From assembly GCA_005222975.1 (NCBI GenBank), contig NJBI01000040.1, positions 1-31,980 of the forward strand: DNA of 31,980 bases, written 5' to 3'. The translations under genes were made by a program, and so were the position numbers. Positions within the stretch are counted from its first letter, which is position 1. The number at the start of each line of letters is the position of its first letter. This DNA is from Promethearchaeota archaeon Loki_b31 (lineage in GTDB: Archaea > Asgardarchaeota > Lokiarchaeia > Sigyniarchaeales > SOKP01). This document shows positions 12,730-20,321 of this stretch, one piece after another. Below the pieces are notes generated by a model that ran no database searches, was not told the DNA's origin, and was given only the letters and a program-made list of their open reading frames with translations.

Positions 12730-13914
12730 ATTAAACGGAGCAATTTTAAGAATAATATATTTCGATTAGCCAGACAAATAAAGAAAGAATTTCAACTCTT
12801 ATGGACTGATAAATTTAATATTTTTATAGCTCTAATAGTTCCACCTCTTGTAGTTGCCTTATTAGGAGTAACCTCTAACATTTCAGGTTCTTCTTTAAAC
12901 CCTATAGATTGCGTTGTGGTTTCTTACGATTCAAATACATTTATTAATGAAAATAATTTTACCGAGTCAAATTTAGATGATTACAATATGAAATATGTTG
13001 AGGCTGTAAACAACTCGAATTTATTAAATCTTATACAATTTTTTAACGCTTCTGAAGAGATTTATGCGATGGAAACGGCTAGAAATTATCTAACTTCAAA
13101 GAAAATTAAGGTTATTATCGCAATTCCAGTTGATTTTTCAGAATTACTAATCTGGGGGTATCCCGGTTTAATAGAATGTATATCAGATTCATCAGATTTT
13201 AAAAAAATTCAAGAAAATTTGAATGCTGTTTACGATTCTATTAAAATTTTTGTTAATCAAAATAATTTGACCCCTCAATTTGAAGTTCGTGGTTTTGAAG
13301 AATTTTCGATACCTGAAGGCTATAGTTTTAAATATAATTATAACATGGTACTTGTTCTCTCTTTTATGGTTATAGGCGTTGGGATGGTCTCAACAATTTT
13401 AATAATAGTTCAAGAAAAACCAATTGCGAGATTATTGCTCACTCCCGTTAAAAGGGCTGAGATTCTATCTGCAAAATATATCACTTATACAAGCATTTTG
13501 ATTATTCAAGATCTTTCACTTGTTATTAGTGCTTTAGCATTTGGGTTATATGTAGTAGGTTCATTGTTCGATTTATTTCTCGCATTATTTATTTTAGGAT
13601 TTACCGGCCTTGCTATAGGTATTTTTATTAGCACATTTAGCAAAACTAAAACTCAAGCAAACCAATTATTTTTTGCTACTTTTCTAGTTTTAATTCTTCT
13701 AAGTGGAATATTTATTCCTATTGATGCCATGCCGATTTACTTACAAATTATAGCATACGCGCTTCCGTTATCTCATGGAAGTCCATTAATAACAGGAATA
13801 ATCACTAAGGGAAAATCAGTATTTGGTTTTGACTTTTTTACTTTATTAGGCGTTAGCATTTTTCTTGTAATTACTTCCTTCATAATATTTCAAAGAAGGA
13901 AATATGAGGTGTAA
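12730..13914 (+). CDS. ABC-2 type transporter permease (probable ATT start at 12730)
   Basis: Frame is open from 12727. The extension encodes QIKKEFQLLWTDKFNIFIALIVPP (TM1, homologous to the first permease). GGAGGTG RBS lies 6 nt before ATT. RLLLTPV and LSGIFIP motifs. Confidence 0.85.
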   Translation: MKRSNFKNNIFRLARQIKKEFQLLWTDKFNIFIALIVPPLVVALLGVTSNISGSSLNPIDCVVVSYDSNTFINENNFTESNLDDYNMKYVEAVNNSNLLNLIQFFNASEEIYAMETARNYLTSKKIKVIIAIPVDFSELLIWGYPGLIECISDSSDFKKIQENLNAVYDSIKIFVNQNNLTPQFEVRGFEEFSIPEGYSFKYNYNMVLVLSFMVIGVGMVSTILIIVQEKPIARLLLTPVKRAEILSAKYITYTSILIIQDLSLVISALAFGLYVVGSLFDLFLALFILGFTGLAIGIFISTFSKTKTQANQLFFATFLVLILLSGIFIPIDAMPIYLQIIAYALPLSHGSPLITGIITKGKSVFGFDFFTLLGVSIFLVITSFIIFQRRKYEV

Positions 13915-14121
13915 AATGGAGATTTCTAATCCTTCTGATAATTCAATGGTACTAGTGGAAAACTTAAATGTCACATTTGGGAAAAACCAAATTGTGCATG
14001 ATGTATCTTTTAATGTGAAGCAAGGTGAAATCATTGGTATGTTTGGAATTTCAGGCGCTGGAAAAACAACAATTATTAGGGTACTAACATGCCAAATTGA
14101 AAAGAAAAATTGGAATGGAAA
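13903..14121 (+). repeat. Left copy of a ~219-bp imperfect direct repeat (RBS plus 5' end of the ABC ATPase gene)
   Basis: Collinear with 16055-16273 at an offset of 2152. 14000-14114 is identical to 16152-16266, and 13903-13919 is identical to 16055-16071. Confidence 0.95.
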
Positions 14122-14128
14122 AAGATAA
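13916..14128 (+). pseudogene. Truncated 5' copy of ABC ATPase (Walker A only)
   Basis: GISGAGKTT is present, then homology ends at about 14121 and a stop follows. Confidence 0.9.
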
Positions 14129-14198
14129 AGATACTCCTGAAGTGTATCGATTACTAATAGAAATGATAGAAGATCTAAAACAAACAGCAAAAAAATAA
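14115..14198 (+). pseudogene. 27-codon fragment paralogous to part of the ORF at 14212
   Basis: EKDKDTPEVYRLLIEMIEDLKQTA aligns with DKDKGTPEVYQLLLEKIEQIKRSA; DNA at about 14121-14188 resembles about 14278-14345. Confidence 0.7.
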
Positions 14199-14211
14199 GA
14201 AAGTGAACTAA

Positions 14212-14748
14212 TTGGAAGATAAAGAAGATCAGGAAGAATTTAGAAAAAGAATTAAAGATTTAGTAGATAGATTGGATAAAGATAAAGGTACTCCTGAAGT
14301 TTATCAACTATTATTAGAAAAAATAGAACAAATAAAAAGATCAGCTATCTCGAAAATAAACAAAGCATCTCGAAACGAAAAGGTTATTATTGGACTTGTA
14401 TATATAATTCGGGAATACAATATGTTAAGATTTGATCCTAAATATCCTTTTGAAAAAGATCATGTTCTAGAGGAGATTGACGCATTGTATAAATTAATCT
14501 ACAAGGAATTGCAAAAACCAAATCCCTATATTCCTGATACATGGGATATAGATGAAAAGAAAAGGATACTTAACAATATGAGAGAGGTTTTGGGAATAGA
14601 AAATATGAACAAATTTTATAAGAAATACAAAATTCATAGGTTAGTTCGTTTAAAACTAGATATGAGAAAAGGTTTTCAATACTATGCGTATTGTTGGATA
14701 ATCGCATTTATTATTTTACTTATAATTTTTTTGGCTCAGAGGTTATAA
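14212..14748 (+). CDS. Hypothetical tail-anchored membrane protein
   Basis: 178-aa charged helical ORF with a single C-terminal hydrophobic segment. Confidence 0.65.
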   Translation: MEDKEDQEEFRKRIKDLVDRLDKDKGTPEVYQLLLEKIEQIKRSAISKINKASRNEKVIIGLVYIIREYNMLRFDPKYPFEKDHVLEEIDALYKLIYKELQKPNPYIPDTWDIDEKKRILNNMREVLGIENMNKFYKKYKIHRLVRLKLDMRKGFQYYAYCWIIAFIILLIIFLAQRL

Positions 14749-14848
14749 TAGGCTTAAATGGTGTTAAAACTTATTTGTCTATTGCATACTTTTTTATATT
14801 AATAGTTTAAGGAATATATTTTTAAATAAAAATCCGAATCCTTAAGTT

Positions 14849-15217
14849 ATGACGATAACATATTCTCGAAAAATAAAAAATAAAATTCGAAAATCAATAA
14901 TAGTATTTTCAATTACATTTGCTGTTCTTTTTTCAGGATTTATTCCTCTTATTGATCTTCCCGAAGGAAATATTCGTGAAGAACCAAATGTGTGGTTTAA
15001 TCCTCATTTATCTGATTTTTAATATGAATGTACTGTAACTACAAATAATACTTTTAACGCTTATAACAAGTCTTATATTATATGTAAAATTCAAAATACG
15101 GATTACTCAAAGTTTTGGTTTAATGGAACACAATACGATGTCAGTTATGGAATGAATATTTTACCTGTTGATTTTAGATTTGGATTGTGTAGAGATATTA
15201 AGGTCGTTAATAAGTGA
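14849..15217 (+). pseudogene. Remnant of a secreted or surface protein gene
   Basis: ATG, then a basic and hydrophobic signal-like N-terminus (KIRKSIIVFSITFAVLFSGFIP), a premature TAA at 15020-15022, and a continuing frame (…FWFNGTQYDVSYGMNILPVDF) that runs into the next ORF. Confidence 0.6.
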
Positions 15218-15986
15218 AAATTGTGTTTGTATATGCTTAAACTGTCATGGTGTCTTGCATTCAACTTTTAATTCTAATATCGAAGAAATACTTAAAGGTA
15301 TATTTACTGAAAATGAAATAAATAAATTTTCTTCAGATGTAAATCTAATTTTAAGTAGAATAAACAACGCGATTATAAGTTTCAAGTTTAAGTTAGAAAC
15401 AATTAAATTTATATCTCCTTTAAAATATGCAATTAATCAAAATGATATTTGGAAAATAAAAATGTTGAAGATATTTTCATATTTGAAACAAAGTGAGTTT
15501 AGAACAAAAGATATTATGAGTTTATGTAACAATAATTACTCTAATGCTTATGAAATAATAAGTAAACTAGTTGAGAAAGAATTCTTACTTCGTGTAAAAA
15601 GAGAGGGTTTTACACAAAACTATTATAAATTTTCAGAAGAGGGAATTAAAAGAGTTAAGGAGATACAACAAACATATGAGTTACACGAAGGTTTGATATC
15701 TTTAGACAATGAACAAATTATTTCTACTCAAAGAATGGAGAATGATGATATACTTGAAATATATCCTAAAATCATAAAGAGTATCATAAAAACTAAGGGA
15801 TATAATGAGTTTACAGTAAAAGAATTAGCAGAAGCCATTGGAAAAAGCACAGTTAACATATCCAGAAATTTAAGAGAAAAATTGATACCAAATGGTTATG
15901 TAAAAGTTAAGATTTCTTCTATTATTACAAAAAAATGTGGAAGTACAAAAGTTTATTATTTAACCGACAAAACAGAGATTCTATAG
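15168..15986 (+). pseudogene. N-terminally truncated HNH-endonuclease-like protein with two winged-HTH domains
   Basis: ENCVCICLNCHGVLH matches the C-terminal half of an HNH motif (N-x3-LC-xx-CH-x3-H). wHTH-like segments FRTKDIM…ISKLVEKEFL and FTVKELAEAIGKSTVNISRNL. No convincing start, and the first His is missing. Confidence 0.6.
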
Positions 15987-16054
15987 AATCATTTTTATTA
16001 ACTTATTATTGTATTATATATTATAAATTGAAGAATATAATATTTATTAGAATG

Positions 16055-16273
16055 TATGAGGTGTAAAATGGGTACATCCAAATCTTTAGAGGAAGTAATG
16101 GTCTTAGTAGAAAACTTAAATGTCACCTTTGGGAAAAACCAAGTTGTGAACGATGTATCTTTTAATGTGAAGCAAGGTGAAATCATTGGTATGTTTGGAA
16201 TTTCAGGCGCTGGAAAAACAACAATTATTAGGGTACTAACATGCCAAATTGAAAAGAAAAATTGGAGTGGAAA
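16055..16273 (+). repeat. Right copy of the ~219-bp direct repeat
   Basis: Collinear with 13903-14121 at an offset of 2152. Confidence 0.95.
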
Positions 16274-17136
16274 TGTTGTAGTTACGAGTTTAAATCCTAG
16301 TAAAAAAAAAAATCATTCAAAAATTCTAAGTAATATTGGATACGTTCCTCAACTAGAACTATTGAATTTATATTTTGAATTAGACCCTTTAAAAAATGTT
16401 GATGTGTTTACATCTACTTATGGAATGAACAAAAAAAAGGCAAGGGAAACTGCTGAAAAGCTGTTTAAAATATTGGACATTCCTGAGGACACTTGGAAAA
16501 AAAGGGTATCGCGGATGAGCGGGGGCGAAAAGAAGCGTCTTTCAATGGCTATTGGTTTAATACATAATCCTGATGTATTATTCCTTGATGAACCGACTAC
16601 ACTATTAAGTTGTTTAAACTAATAGAGTTTTAGGTGTCGATGCATCGAAACGCTATGATATACTCAGTTATCTAGAGAAGTTAAACCAGCATTTAAACAC
16701 AACCATGTTTATTATTACACACGATTTAGAAGCGGCACTAATATGTGGTAAAACTGCGATATTAAGGCAGGGGAAATTACTCGAATTTGATACACCTCAA
16801 AAATTAATATCTTCTTTGCCAAGTGGGGGTTTAGTAGCGAGAATTTCAATCGAAAATTTAGATCAAAAAGTAATAAAAACGGTTCAAAAATTTGATTCAG
16901 TCAAAAATGTATTACGCGTTGGAAATGAAACTATCGAAGTATTAATGGAAAATTTTGAGAATAACTTACCTAAATTAATGAAATATTTATTTGCGAATGA
17001 CGTTAAAATTTATTCAATGAGTAGGGATATTGCCAATTTTAGAAGGTTCTTTCAGATTAGAATCCAAGAGGAAGAAGAAAAAGAAAAGGAAGTAGATATT
17101 TCTGAAATAAATAGTGAAGGTGGAATTACATCTTAA
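16068..17136 (+). CDS. ABC transporter ATP-binding protein; predicted spliced gene join(16068..16600,16632..17136), 345 aa
   Basis: Walker A GISGAGKTT, signature MSGGE and Walker B LFLDE lie in exon 1. Removing 16601-16631 gives DEPTTGVDASKR and joins the frame carrying the ITHD H-loop (ORF 16705-17136). Confidence 0.92.
16601..16631 (+). other. 31-nt BHB intron in a protein-coding gene
   Basis: RNA reads ACC-GACU-AC^A-CUAUUAAGUU-GUUUA-AACUAAUAG-AGUU-UU^A-GGU: 4-bp helix GACU/AGUU, bulges ACA and UUA, a 9-bp intron stem and exon stem ACC/GGU. It contains in-frame stop codons. Confidence 0.9.
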
Positions 17137-20100
17137 AATTAAGTCGGAAAAACGAAAAAAGACTAAAAAATATTATTATAGTCTGTATTCTTATAGGAAC
17201 TCCACTCATAACTTTGGTTTTAGTAAATGTTCGTTGGACTTATTTTATTGACGAAAAAAATGTAGAACAAGTTAAAAATATGGTAACTTCATTTACAAGT
17301 ACTCATCATAACGATGTTGGACTGTTTGTAGAACCAGATATTGATTCAAATTTTAGAGCCATTGACTCTATTAATTTCACATTTTCAAGTATTAATGCTC
17401 CTGAATTGATTGATCCTAATTTTAATCTAAATATTGAGTCTTTTTCCCGTGATTTCTTTTTTGATTATATCTTTGAAAAACAAAATATAGATGGATCCTA
17501 TTCAGATATAGCAGGATTTGGAAATATGTTTTCAACCTATGAAGCAATCGAAACATTAGAAATAACCAATAAGTCGTATCTTGAACGCAAGATAAATCTT
17601 GGAGAAACGAGTAATATCGCAAATTACCTTTCAACTTCTTTAAATGAAGGGGGATGGGGCTTTAAGGCTAATCAGTTCTTAAACGATTCTGACATTATTT
17701 CTACGTTCTGTGCGATTGAACTCGCATATAGTTTATCAGAGAGTTCTTTACTTCTAAATCAAAATATTGAAGAATTTATTGATTCTACATGGTCTTTAGG
17801 TAGTTATCGATTAACAAATGATTCTTTAGATTCAAATCCAGAAACGACATTCTATGGTGTACGAGCTTTTTTAGGAATGAACATGTCTTATAATTTAGTT
17901 GAACTATTACTCATTGGAGCTTATTTTTATAATTTATTTAACCCTTTCGATGGGGGGTATATTAACCCTGAAACGGGTATTTCTGATATTCGATCGACAT
18001 ATTATTCAATTTCTTCACTAGATCTCTTAGAAATTCCTTTAAATTTAAAAAATGCCTCTAAAACTTTAGAATTTATCTTAAATTGTTCAAATAATGATGG
18101 AGGATTTGGTGTTCATCCAAATGTAACTAAATCTGATTTCACATCTGGTTGGGCAGCAATGAAATCAATTAAGATTTTAGAAAGTAAGTTAATTCTTACT
18201 CAAGAAGTAATTGATGCTATAAAACAAATTAAAATTAATTACTATGAATGGCTACACTTTTTCCAAGCAAAAAACGCTCTATTTGGGCAAATAACAATTG
18301 AAACTAATTATTTTGGAATTTTAACTTATTTTACTATGGGGTATCTCGATTCAATACAGACCGCGCAATTTCAATATATAAAAAGCAATATCTTAAGTTT
18401 TACAAAAGCATGTTATAATATTAATGATGGAGGATTTGGTTCGCAACCAGGTCAAGAAGCAACGCTTTTTGCTACATATTGTGGATTAAATCTGTTTCAA
18501 ATGCTTAATCCCGCAGATCGACCTTGGGATCCTAATACATTAAATCTGACATTGACAAAAAATTTCTTGTCTAACATGCAAAATCCTGATGGAGGTTTCA
18601 GAGTTGGAAACGATGTCGATTATTTATTATCTCTTTTCGAGTCTTATTCTATAATTTTTACTAATTTAATCAATACGAATGTGTCCACTGTAGAAAGTAC
18701 ATATTGGGCATTAATTTCTCTAGAATTAATTAATGGGTTAGATCGGATTCATTATAATAATCTTTCTCAATGGGTAAGGTCGTGCCAAAACGCTGATGGA
18801 GGATTTTCAATTGTTATAGGATTTCATAGCGACGTTATTTCTACATATTACGGTTTGCAAATCTTTTACGAGGGTTTTGTTAACGGTCCAATGTCTAAAA
18901 TGACCGCAATTGATTTTTTAAAGCTTTCGCAAACTTCCGATGGAAGTTTTTCCCTTATACCCATGATGGGGAAATTTTTAGATTTACCTTCATCTTTTCT
19001 AGTGACCTATCTCGCTTCTAAGGCTCTTTACGACTACAACTTTCAACCAGATAACATTCAAGAAGCTTTAATCTGGTTTTCGGGATGTATAAGCACCAAC
19101 ACGGGAGGGATAGGAGATAACCCTGATTTTGGAGCCGATTTACGAAATTCGCCCTATGGAATTATAATTATAGACGAATTAAAATATGACCAGAGTTTTG
19201 ATTCAAAACCTTGGAATCAATTATTATTTTATATCTTACTTACTGAAGCTGGATTTATTGGTCTATTTATATTTTTAAAAATTCGTAAAAGACTCTCGTT
19301 ATTGAAAAGAATTAAAGAAAAATTAGGTCTTGGCGGAAAAATTACACCATCCTATCTAAAAAGATTTCCATCAATTAGTTGCGAAAACTTTAGCGTATTT
19401 GCTGGAGGGAAATTAATTGTTGACTCTGTGTCAATGAAAATAGAACATGGTCAAATACTAGGAATCTTAGGGGAAAGTGGGGCAGGAAAATCAACTTTTG
19501 TAAAAGGGTTGTTGGGAATGAGAAAAATTACTGGATTTTGTAAAATTTATGGAATGGACATTAATAAAAAAAATTCTAAAAGGTTAAGACCAATATACGG
19601 CTATGTTCCCCAAGATCTAGGGAAAATCTATCATAATTTTACTGTCTTTGAAAACCTGTTATATTTTGGAACTCAATATGGGTTAACAGAACAAGAAATA
19701 ATAAGTAGATCTAGGAGACTTTTGCGTAATCTTGAAATTGAAGATAAATTTAATGAACTCGTGAGAAACCTTTCGGGGGGCCAAAAAAGAAGGGTTAGCA
19801 TTGCAATTGGGCTAATTCACGCCCCAATTTTTCTTATTTTAGATGAACCCACTTCAGGCTTAGATCCAATCATACGCGAAAACTTATGGTTAGCCCTTAC
19901 AAGAATCAACGAGCAATTTGGAACTACTCTAATTGTAATAACTCATTATCCCGAAGAATCTCGCTTCTGCCATCGCGTTGCTATTTTCGGCAGAAATCGC
20001 GGCGTTATAGACTTCGGGAAACCAAAAGATCTTTTAGCTCAATTACCTGGAAAAGGACGTTCTATAGAAATATGTTTCAAAGAGCTAAAAGAAAATGTAA

Positions 20101-20321
20101 TTGAAGCGCTCGAATCTATAGATGGCATAGAAAGCGTTCTTGAAAATAAAGCGGGAACTGATTATTCGTTATTTACCGAATTAAACTTAAAAGAACTAAT
20201 TGAAAAAATCGAAAATGAAATTGGTAAAGATTCTATCCAAGAAATAAAGCAAATCGATTCTAAAATGGAACAATTCTTCAGATACAAATTAATTGAGGTG
20301 CCTGAAATTGAAGAACTCTAG
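17130..20321 (+). CDS. Fusion protein: signal anchor, prenyltransferase/squalene-oxidase-repeat domain, TM helix, ABC ATPase
   Basis: Repeated (Q/S)NxDGGF motifs, many N-x-S/T sequons, TM LLFYILLTEAGFIGLFIFL, then GESGAGKST, LSGGQ, LDEPTSGLDP and ITH. The true start is uncertain and lies upstream of the called 17214. Confidence 0.85.
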   Translation: MLKLSRKNEKRLKNIIIVCILIGTPLITLVLVNVRWTYFIDEKNVEQVKNMVTSFTSTHHNDVGLFVEPDIDSNFRAIDSINFTFSSINAPELIDPNFNLNIESFSRDFFFDYIFEKQNIDGSYSDIAGFGNMFSTYEAIETLEITNKSYLERKINLGETSNIANYLSTSLNEGGWGFKANQFLNDSDIISTFCAIELAYSLSESSLLLNQNIEEFIDSTWSLGSYRLTNDSLDSNPETTFYGVRAFLGMNMSYNLVELLLIGAYFYNLFNPFDGGYINPETGISDIRSTYYSISSLDLLEIPLNLKNASKTLEFILNCSNNDGGFGVHPNVTKSDFTSGWAAMKSIKILESKLILTQEVIDAIKQIKINYYEWLHFFQAKNALFGQITIETNYFGILTYFTMGYLDSIQTAQFQYIKSNILSFTKACYNINDGGFGSQPGQEATLFATYCGLNLFQMLNPADRPWDPNTLNLTLTKNFLSNMQNPDGGFRVGNDVDYLLSLFESYSIIFTNLINTNVSTVESTYWALISLELINGLDRIHYNNLSQWVRSCQNADGGFSIVIGFHSDVISTYYGLQIFYEGFVNGPMSKMTAIDFLKLSQTSDGSFSLIPMMGKFLDLPSSFLVTYLASKALYDYNFQPDNIQEALIWFSGCISTNTGGIGDNPDFGADLRNSPYGIIIIDELKYDQSFDSKPWNQLLFYILLTEAGFIGLFIFLKIRKRLSLLKRIKEKLGLGGKITPSYLKRFPSISCENFSVFAGGKLIVDSVSMKIEHGQILGILGESGAGKSTFVKGLLGMRKITGFCKIYGMDINKKNSKRLRPIYGYVPQDLGKIYHNFTVFENLLYFGTQYGLTEQEIISRSRRLLRNLEIEDKFNELVRNLSGGQKRRVSIAIGLIHAPIFLILDEPTSGLDPIIRENLWLALTRINEQFGTTLIVITHYPEESRFCHRVAIFGRNRGVIDFGKPKDLLAQLPGKGRSIEICFKELKENVIEALESIDGIESVLENKAGTDYSLFTELNLKELIEKIENEIGKDSIQEIKQIDSKMEQFFRYKLIEVPEIEEL

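Follow-up and report, generated by a model that had tools for sequence, protein, structure and literature searches.

How should a gene be read when a short insert between two of its motifs brings in both a stop codon and a frameshift: as a decaying remnant, as two coding sequences, or as one gene whose message is mended after transcription? This question is raised by an ATP-binding cassette (ABC) ATPase gene in a stretch of 31,980 nucleotides (nt) from Promethearchaeota archaeon Loki_b31 (contig NJBI01000040.1), referred to here as the window, whose first letter is position 1 of all coordinates without a contig prefix. The window corresponds to contig C98 in a 3.5-Mb metagenome-assembled genome of the Promethearchaeota (Loki-type Asgard archaea), which comprises 99 contigs with 31.5% G+C and is 92% complete. 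Positions 16601-16631, inside the coding sequence of the ATPase, very probably represent a genuine archaeal bulge-helix-bulge (BHB) intron, judged by comparison of the sequence with its relatives. What can be read directly from the genomes is the anatomy of the gene, the exact 31-nt gap, the conservation and selection acting on exons and insert, the co-adaptation of the exons and the presence of suitable enzymes; from these we infer cleavage, ligation and the enzymes responsible for them.

An ATPase gene in two pieces

ORF (open reading frame) calling yields two separate pieces of the gene, 16056-16622 and 16705-17136. The former encodes the first two thirds of an ABC ATPase, counted from the N-terminus, and, if left unspliced, would give a 188-amino-acid (aa) fragment ending in ...TLLSCLN, closed by a TAA at 16620-16622 that belongs to the insert itself. 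The part upstream of the insert, considered here as exon 1, matches the Pfam family ABC_tran (E 1.6e-25, profile positions 1-136 of 137), and its 3' end, ...GAA CCG ACU AC, stops at the second base of a Thr codon. Exon 2 opens with A GGU GUC GAU, i.e., with the missing third base, and its frame reads GVDASKRY..., the second separately called ORF beginning only at an ATG just before the H-loop. The insert therefore splits the ATPase between Walker B and the D-loop (Table 1).

When position 16600 is joined in silico to 16632, a single ORF results, with 349 aa if counted from the first ATG; with ATG 16068, the likely start, which is preceded by GAGGTG, its length is 345 aa. The junction then reads ...GAACCGACUAC joined to AGGUGUCGAU..., and the protein reads ...DEPTTGVD..., or ...DEPTTGVDASKRY... 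over a longer stretch. An earlier interpretation made from the letters of the window and its ORFs, called here the sequence-only reading, had reported the two ORF pieces, the union of AC and A into Thr and an ATPase of 345 aa, all of which were reproduced.

Table 1. Positions of the two exons of the ATPase gene and of the parts of the BHB motif predicted around the insert
Feature	Position	Strand	Description
Exon 1, ABC ATPase	16056-16600	+	Walker A, signature motif and Walker B (...LFLDEPT); translation, Pfam
Outer helix h, 5' strand ACC	16592-16594	+	pairs with GGU 16633-16635 (exon 2)
Central 4-bp helix H, 5' strand GACU (exon bases)	16595-16598	+	pairs with AGUU 16626-16629
5' bulge ACA	16599-16601	+	predicted cut 16600/16601; invariant in 16 homologs
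31-nt intron (putative)	16601-16631	+	absent in 23 distinct intronless orthologs, homologous insert in 18 alleles
Inner hairpin h'	16602-16625	+	16602-16611 with 16617-16625, 9 bp, one bulged A, 5-nt loop 16612-16616
Central helix H', 3' strand AGUU (intron bases)	16626-16629	+	pairs with GACU 16595-16598
3' bulge UUA	16630-16632	+	predicted cut 16631/16632
Exon 2	16632-17136	+	Thr codon base 3, D-loop GVD, H-loop ...IITHD, C-terminal domain, stop codon

The insert as a probable splicing substrate

From a structural point of view, the bases around the insert agree with the definition of a BHB motif: two 3-nt bulges lie on opposite strands and are separated by a spacer helix of 4 bp, each bulge being located 3' of its own strand of the central helix. 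The two flanking helices of the full hBHBh' arrangement are likewise present, with h formed between the exons (3 bp) and h' by a hairpin within the intron (9 bp), and the cuts predicted after the second base of each bulge lead to an in-frame product. This geometry and these cut positions are those of archaeal tRNA introns at position 37/38. The same genome encodes a tRNA-Thr (C84:27264-27355) with a 19-nt BHB intron whose geometry matches that of the ATPase insert. In a genome-wide scan, the strict motif was found 15,546 times among approximately 4e8 combinations of position and length, that is, at a frequency of approximately 4e-5 each; since the boundaries of the insert are fixed independently by intronless orthologs, the occurrence of the motif at exactly those boundaries is far beyond chance. 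The bases, helices and bulges drawn by the sequence-only reading at 16601-16631 are all in the sequence, and the boundaries coincide with those given by the orthologs.

The arrangement of these paired bases also bears on translational recoding, in which the ribosome would bypass the 31 nt or shift frame across them, in the manner of the 50-nt hop in phage T4 gene 60. A stop codon and a stable hairpin do follow soon after the last in-frame sense codons, as might be expected of such an event. Nevertheless, the 3' edge of the insert offers no landing codon that matches the take-off codon ACA, the shift would have to span 31 nt with stop codons in the frames entered, and the conserved pairing of the exon with the last bases of the insert, its two 3-nt bulges lying on opposite strands, suits the splicing endonuclease EndA and not a hop. 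Recoding is, on these grounds, highly improbable.

Orthologs with and without the insert

Exon 2 was used for a search across 61 related genomes, in which most genomes of the genus proved to encode an ortholog, and genome and metagenome collections contributed further ones. At least 23 distinct orthologs lack the insert and read GAR CCN ACN ACN GGN, in register and identical to the predicted ligation product, which puts the gap at precisely 31 nt. Another 18 distinct alleles have a homologous insert of 31 nt at this position. They were found in 7 of the class's 161 genomes, which belong to two genera within a single family, and on 12 metagenome contigs; the metagenome pattern had 15 matches in total, of which three (L042, L044 and L050) were dropped as chance matches in unrelated contexts. 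After in-silico splicing, all 18 alleles read ...DEPTTGVDASKRY, and wherever the contig extends far enough, the spliced ORF is intact, with 337-365 aa. As the insert is shared by 18 intact alleles, an assembly artefact or a lesion private to this genome is excluded. The possibility that the insert is a mobile repeat similar to a miniature inverted-repeat transposable element was rejected, because each of the 7 positive genomes holds a single copy; a search for a second copy in the genome of the window returned only short chance matches.

Pairing and co-adaptation of the exons

Conservation of the motif was assessed in an alignment of 16 homologs (A1). All 64 cells of the central helix are paired, G-U/A-U and U-A/U-G variants included, as are 47 of the 48 cells of the outer helix. 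The variable pair of the outer helix joins the third base of the Glu codon to that of the Gly codon (G-C in 7 homologs, A-U in 4, G-U in 4 and A.C in 1). The hairpin stem is kept in all homologs, with its bulge shifting between columns 46 and 47, and the first two bases of the 3' bulge vary (UU, UG, AA, UC or UA). A further exon helix, UUGAU/GUCGA, had been part of the sequence-only reading as an extension of the exon pairing; it can form in the window, but one of its positions is unpaired in 11 of the 16 homologs and another in 6, which rules it out as a conserved 5-bp extension.

A more telling comparison is that between alleles with and without the insert, as several of the exon bases that would pair are synonymous third codon positions. 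The third base of the Pro codon is a purine, able to pair with U, in 18/18 intron-bearing alleles and in 7/23 intronless orthologs, whereas the third base of the first Thr codon is U in 18/18 and 9/23, respectively, and the third bases of Glu and Gly are pairable in 17/18 and 14/23. All three conditions hold together in 17 of the 18 bearers and in only 2 of the 23 intronless orthologs (Fisher p = 2e-8, a value inflated by relatedness, though the bearers span at least six separate clades). The exon bases needed by the BHB are thus constrained only where the intron is present. Two intronless alleles, L030 and L031, retain the full exon signature of the bearers, CCA ACT ACA GGT, as would be expected if they had lost the intron precisely and recently.

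Selection on exons and insert

Between pairs of intron-bearing alleles, the proportion of synonymous differences (pS) is for the most part approximately 0.7, i.e., saturated, and that of nonsynonymous differences (pN) is 0.1-0.2. The resulting ratio of nonsynonymous to synonymous substitution rates (dN/dS) lies between 0.05 and 0.2 for most computable pairs in both exons and reaches at most 0.29, in the closest pair, exon 2 being constrained as strongly as exon 1. The insert itself shows a mean pairwise identity of 88%, compared with 46% at the flanking third codon positions and 91.5% at codon positions 1 and 2, which implies that the intron, too, is under purifying selection.

These data weigh heavily on the reading of the gene as a pseudogene, in which a 31-nt insertion would have inactivated the ATPase and left the gene to decay. 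Such a reading would account for the stop codon and the frameshift, for the absence of the insert from the closest sequenced relatives (91-92% nucleotide identity) and for the 1.9-kb insertion with a 242-bp duplication that lies just upstream in this genome. It is, nonetheless, hardly credible: 18 distinct alleles from at least six clades retain the insert without any other lesion, dN/dS is low where synonymous sites are saturated, and the insert is conserved like a constrained element to which the synonymous sites of the exons are co-adapted. The sequence-only reading had preferred an intron to pseudogene decay on account of two otherwise lesion-free exons, and had proposed the exact gap and purifying selection as tests; the gap, the selection on both exons and the helices in the 16 homologs have all turned out in favour of that preference, and no other lesion was found in any of the 18 bearers.

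Another way of accommodating the interruption is a split gene, in which the ORFs 16056-16622 and 16705-17136 are translated apart, the two halves assemble and the insert is nothing but a spacer. Both pieces are open, and the second does start with an ATG just before the H-loop. Yet the 24 codons from the junction to this first possible start, from GVD onwards and including the D-loop, have no start codon ahead of them, and in all intron-bearers they are conserved at the protein level while varying synonymously; they must therefore be translated in that frame, which is possible only once the insert has been removed. A mere spacer would, in addition, leave both the conserved BHB and the exon co-adaptation unexplained, and we regard a split gene as very unlikely.

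Splicing enzymes and a possible pathway

The genome encodes two members of the EndA family (PF01974). The C13 paralog (region C13:36116-36340) has its best match in chain 3p1z_B of the Aeropyrum pernix heterotetramer (E 2.8e-34); it is alpha-like, with Tyr, His and Lys at the alignment positions taken as the catalytic triad, and a Lys is aligned to K44 of the Crenarchaea-specific loop. The C79 paralog (region C79:5005-5253) has a Ser opposite the Methanocaldococcus jannaschii His taken as catalytic and would be beta-like, the loss of this His being as expected of a structural subunit. RtcB is also encoded, on C84 (E 7e-169). For Asgard archaea, an (alpha-beta)2 EndA with an L1 loop that confers a broad substrate range has been described (PMC5829648), and tRNA introns are abundant in the group (PMC11291895; bioRxiv 10.64898/2026.10.13.758758). 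In this genome, which is 92% complete, ARAGORN identified only 14 tRNA genes, of which 6 contain introns, a finding that fits the heavily interrupted Asgard tRNA genes of the literature.

On this basis, a pathway can be proposed for the ATPase message. In the pre-mRNA, the exon bases ACC-GACU would pair with AGUU of the intron and GGU of exon 2, generating two 3-nt bulges on opposite strands around a 4-bp helix, stacked on the 9-bp hairpin of the intron. A heteromeric (alpha/beta) EndA would then cut after the second base of each bulge, and RtcB would ligate AC to A-GGU, restoring the Thr codon and the reading frame. The spliced mRNA would encode the whole ATPase (345-349 aa), its Walker B/D-loop region (DEPTTGVD) uninterrupted.

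Removal by other means, be it an unknown nuclease, regulatory cleavage without religation or excision at the DNA level, has in its favour that the patchy distribution of the intron on the gene tree shows exact loss or gain at the DNA level to occur. Against this stand the geometry of the motif, which is exactly that of an EndA substrate and recurs in the tRNA-Thr intron of this genome, and the presence of genes for both EndA and RtcB; moreover, an RNA of 31 nt is too small to be a self-splicing intron. We accordingly consider these other routes improbable in the extreme.

Evidence against the intron and the context of the locus

Several observations nevertheless weigh against an intron at this site. 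Some concern the RNA itself: the BHB is not the thermodynamic optimum, with -8.2 kcal/mol compared with -14.9 kcal/mol for the minimum-free-energy structure, and the fold returned by RNAalifold contains the outer helix and the hairpin but lacks the central helix of 4 bp. The minimum-energy structure of the single sequence lacks this helix as well; its absence was treated as the usual penalty on 3-nt bulges and, as such, as neither counter-evidence nor support. One homolog has the A.C mismatch in its outer helix, and covariation is weak, 70-100 of 500 column shuffles reaching the observed values; the test is not significant because the element hardly varies.

Other observations concern this particular copy of the gene. 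Relative to two close genomes (G017 and G005, approximately 92% nucleotide identity over 30 kb), 1.9 kb have been inserted just upstream of the ATPase, at 14122-16034. This insertion contains three ORFs, which encode 178, 57 and 272 aa and of which the third is weakly TrmB-like, and its flanks are formed by a direct duplication of the ATPase 5' end, 242 bp in length (region 13882-16278). As a consequence, the ABC-2 permease gene (12916-13914) is still coupled to a truncated ATPase stub of 74 aa (13904-14128), while the complete, intron-bearing copy lies downstream of the insertion, cut off from the permease, and its expression is not certain. The argument for the intron is unaffected by this rearrangement, since it rests on 18 alleles.

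Downstream of the ATPase, positions 17214-20321 encode a 1035-aa fusion of a prenyltransferase-like alpha-alpha toroid domain (PF00432, E 1.8e-34) with an ABC ATPase domain, a protein that is conserved in relatives, where it has approximately 1065 aa. The unbroken DEPTSGLDP of this fusion, which the sequence-only reading had used as an internal control, is seen in its translation. No tRNA gene was found in the window by ARAGORN, and no Rfam family matches 16450-16800.

Gain and loss of the probable intron

On a maximum-likelihood tree of 33 orthologs, the distribution of the intron needs seven changes, at least six of which are forced by well-supported branches, essentially within one genus. 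The bearers form six or more distinct clades that all have intronless sister groups, and the nearest neighbours of the allele studied here are intronless genomes (91% amino-acid identity) together with two metagenome contigs that carry the intron. Since all bearers share a homologous intron, two histories are possible, namely one ancient gain, after which the intron was lost exactly on several occasions, or the spread of an intron-bearing segment by recombination.

Possible further introns in the genome

Along the approximately 30 kb that can be aligned with G017, only two intron-like inserts are found in the coding sequence of the window: the one in the ATPase and a second BHB-type intron of 29 nt, at 1491-1519 on the minus strand. 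The latter splits ...FSC-M-GCGDCG... of an Fe-S/CCG-type oxidoreductase whose gene extends over approximately 311-1572 and probably starts at TTG 1572 (ATG in relatives) and not at the called GTG 1543. Its motif has GUGU/GCAU as the central helix, AUA and UUG as the bulges and two further helices (3 and 5 bp), and three relatives (G005, G017 and G021) lack exactly these 29 nt. In a fourth, G019 (L070, G019:C263, approximately at 1790-1890), the same site is occupied by a different and longer insert of approximately 60 nt, which suggests the replacement of an intron, or a change in its length, at one splice site. In the permease region, contig G017:C52 has a 48-nt insert relative to the window, an in-frame length, just before approximately position 12742 and upstream of the permease gene.

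Taking together the two introns in a window of 32 kb, the insert of approximately 60 nt in G019 and the at least six changes on the ATPase tree, it is quite possible, if slightly doubtful, that Loki-type Asgards carry a dynamic population of introns of approximately 30 nt in ordinary protein-coding genes, spliced by EndA, gained and lost repeatedly and precisely inside a single genus, and accompanied by synonymous co-evolution of the exons. Genome-wide searches that combined BHB scans with the joining of ORFs gave no excess. With the strict hBHBh' motif, 55 matches restored a reading frame, compared with 125 of 30,904 displaced controls, and with a relaxed motif there were 168 real matches and 165 with mirror geometry, a balance that speaks against a large intron population. 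Examining the tails of helix length or filtering for the absence of a start codon likewise revealed no excess. Boundaries between adjacent genes dominate the noise of these scans, which therefore cannot count mRNA introns, and no census was drawn from them.

Relation to known splicing systems

Splicing of coding sequences by tRNA-splicing enzymes has few precedents in archaea. The literature found comprises the crenarchaeal cbf5 gene only, plus one intron in a Haloferax 5' untranslated region (UTR) (PMC7714728, PMC2738675), and the Haloferax study itself names cbf5 as the only other example (PMC7714728); a literature search for published BHB introns in Asgard mRNAs found none. The closest published case is the intron in the pre-mRNA of crenarchaeal cbf5, which encodes a pseudouridine synthase (Watanabe 2002; Yoshinari 2006; Yokobori 2009, PMC2738675). 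Both cases feature a short BHB intron in a coding sequence, a host with a hetero-oligomeric EndA (predicted for the ATPase host) and a gene that is split by gene callers, and in both the intron is present in some lineages and missing from others, secondary loss being one of the causes. They differ in lineage and gene, as the present intron interrupts the Walker B/D-loop region of an ABC ATPase in the Promethearchaeota, an Asgard lineage, and its gain and loss is far patchier, with at least six changes within essentially one genus. Moreover, splicing of cbf5 was shown at the RNA level, whereas the ATPase intron is known from sequence.

The BHB intron in the 5' UTR of HVO_1309 of Haloferax volcanii (PMC7714728) provides another instance in which the tRNA-splicing endonuclease acts on an mRNA and not on a tRNA or rRNA. 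There, in contrast to the ATPase, the intron lies in the untranslated leader, and no reading frame is interrupted. The EndA of Haloferax volcanii is a homodimer (alpha'2), unlike that predicted for the ATPase host.

The archaeal tRNA introns at 37/38 share with the ATPase intron an identical hBHBh' geometry, the cut positions and the predicted enzymes. The host RNA is, however, an mRNA in the case of the ATPase, in which Glu/Pro and Gly codons act as the "anticodon-stem", so that the exon strands are under a coding and a pairing constraint at the same time. A more distant parallel is the splicing of HAC1/XBP1 by Ire1 and RtcB, which is also free of a spliceosome and removes a short, frame-changing mRNA intron by means of a protein endonuclease at sites defined by stem-loops, with ligation of the RtcB type in XBP1. 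In that system, the endonuclease is unrelated, the sites lie in twin 7-nt loops and splicing is regulated by stress. Ire1/RtcB-dependent mRNA splicing is mentioned in PMC13149111.

Implications

If the ATPase insert is spliced as proposed, splicing of the tRNA type would extend to an ordinary transporter gene in the Asgards, the closest archaeal relatives of eukaryotes. The comparative signatures are unusually clear, with an intron conserved like the protein-determining positions around it and synonymous sites of the exons co-adapted to it, and its repeated exact gain or loss within one genus makes the mobility of BHB introns directly testable. There is also a warning for annotation: gene callers render such a gene as two fragments or as a pseudogene, and the gene content of Asgard genomes, as well as their counts of "pseudogenes", may be biased in consequence. 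A dynamic population of such introns, if it truly exists, would amount to a protein-only system of mRNA splicing in the closest archaeal relatives of eukaryotes.
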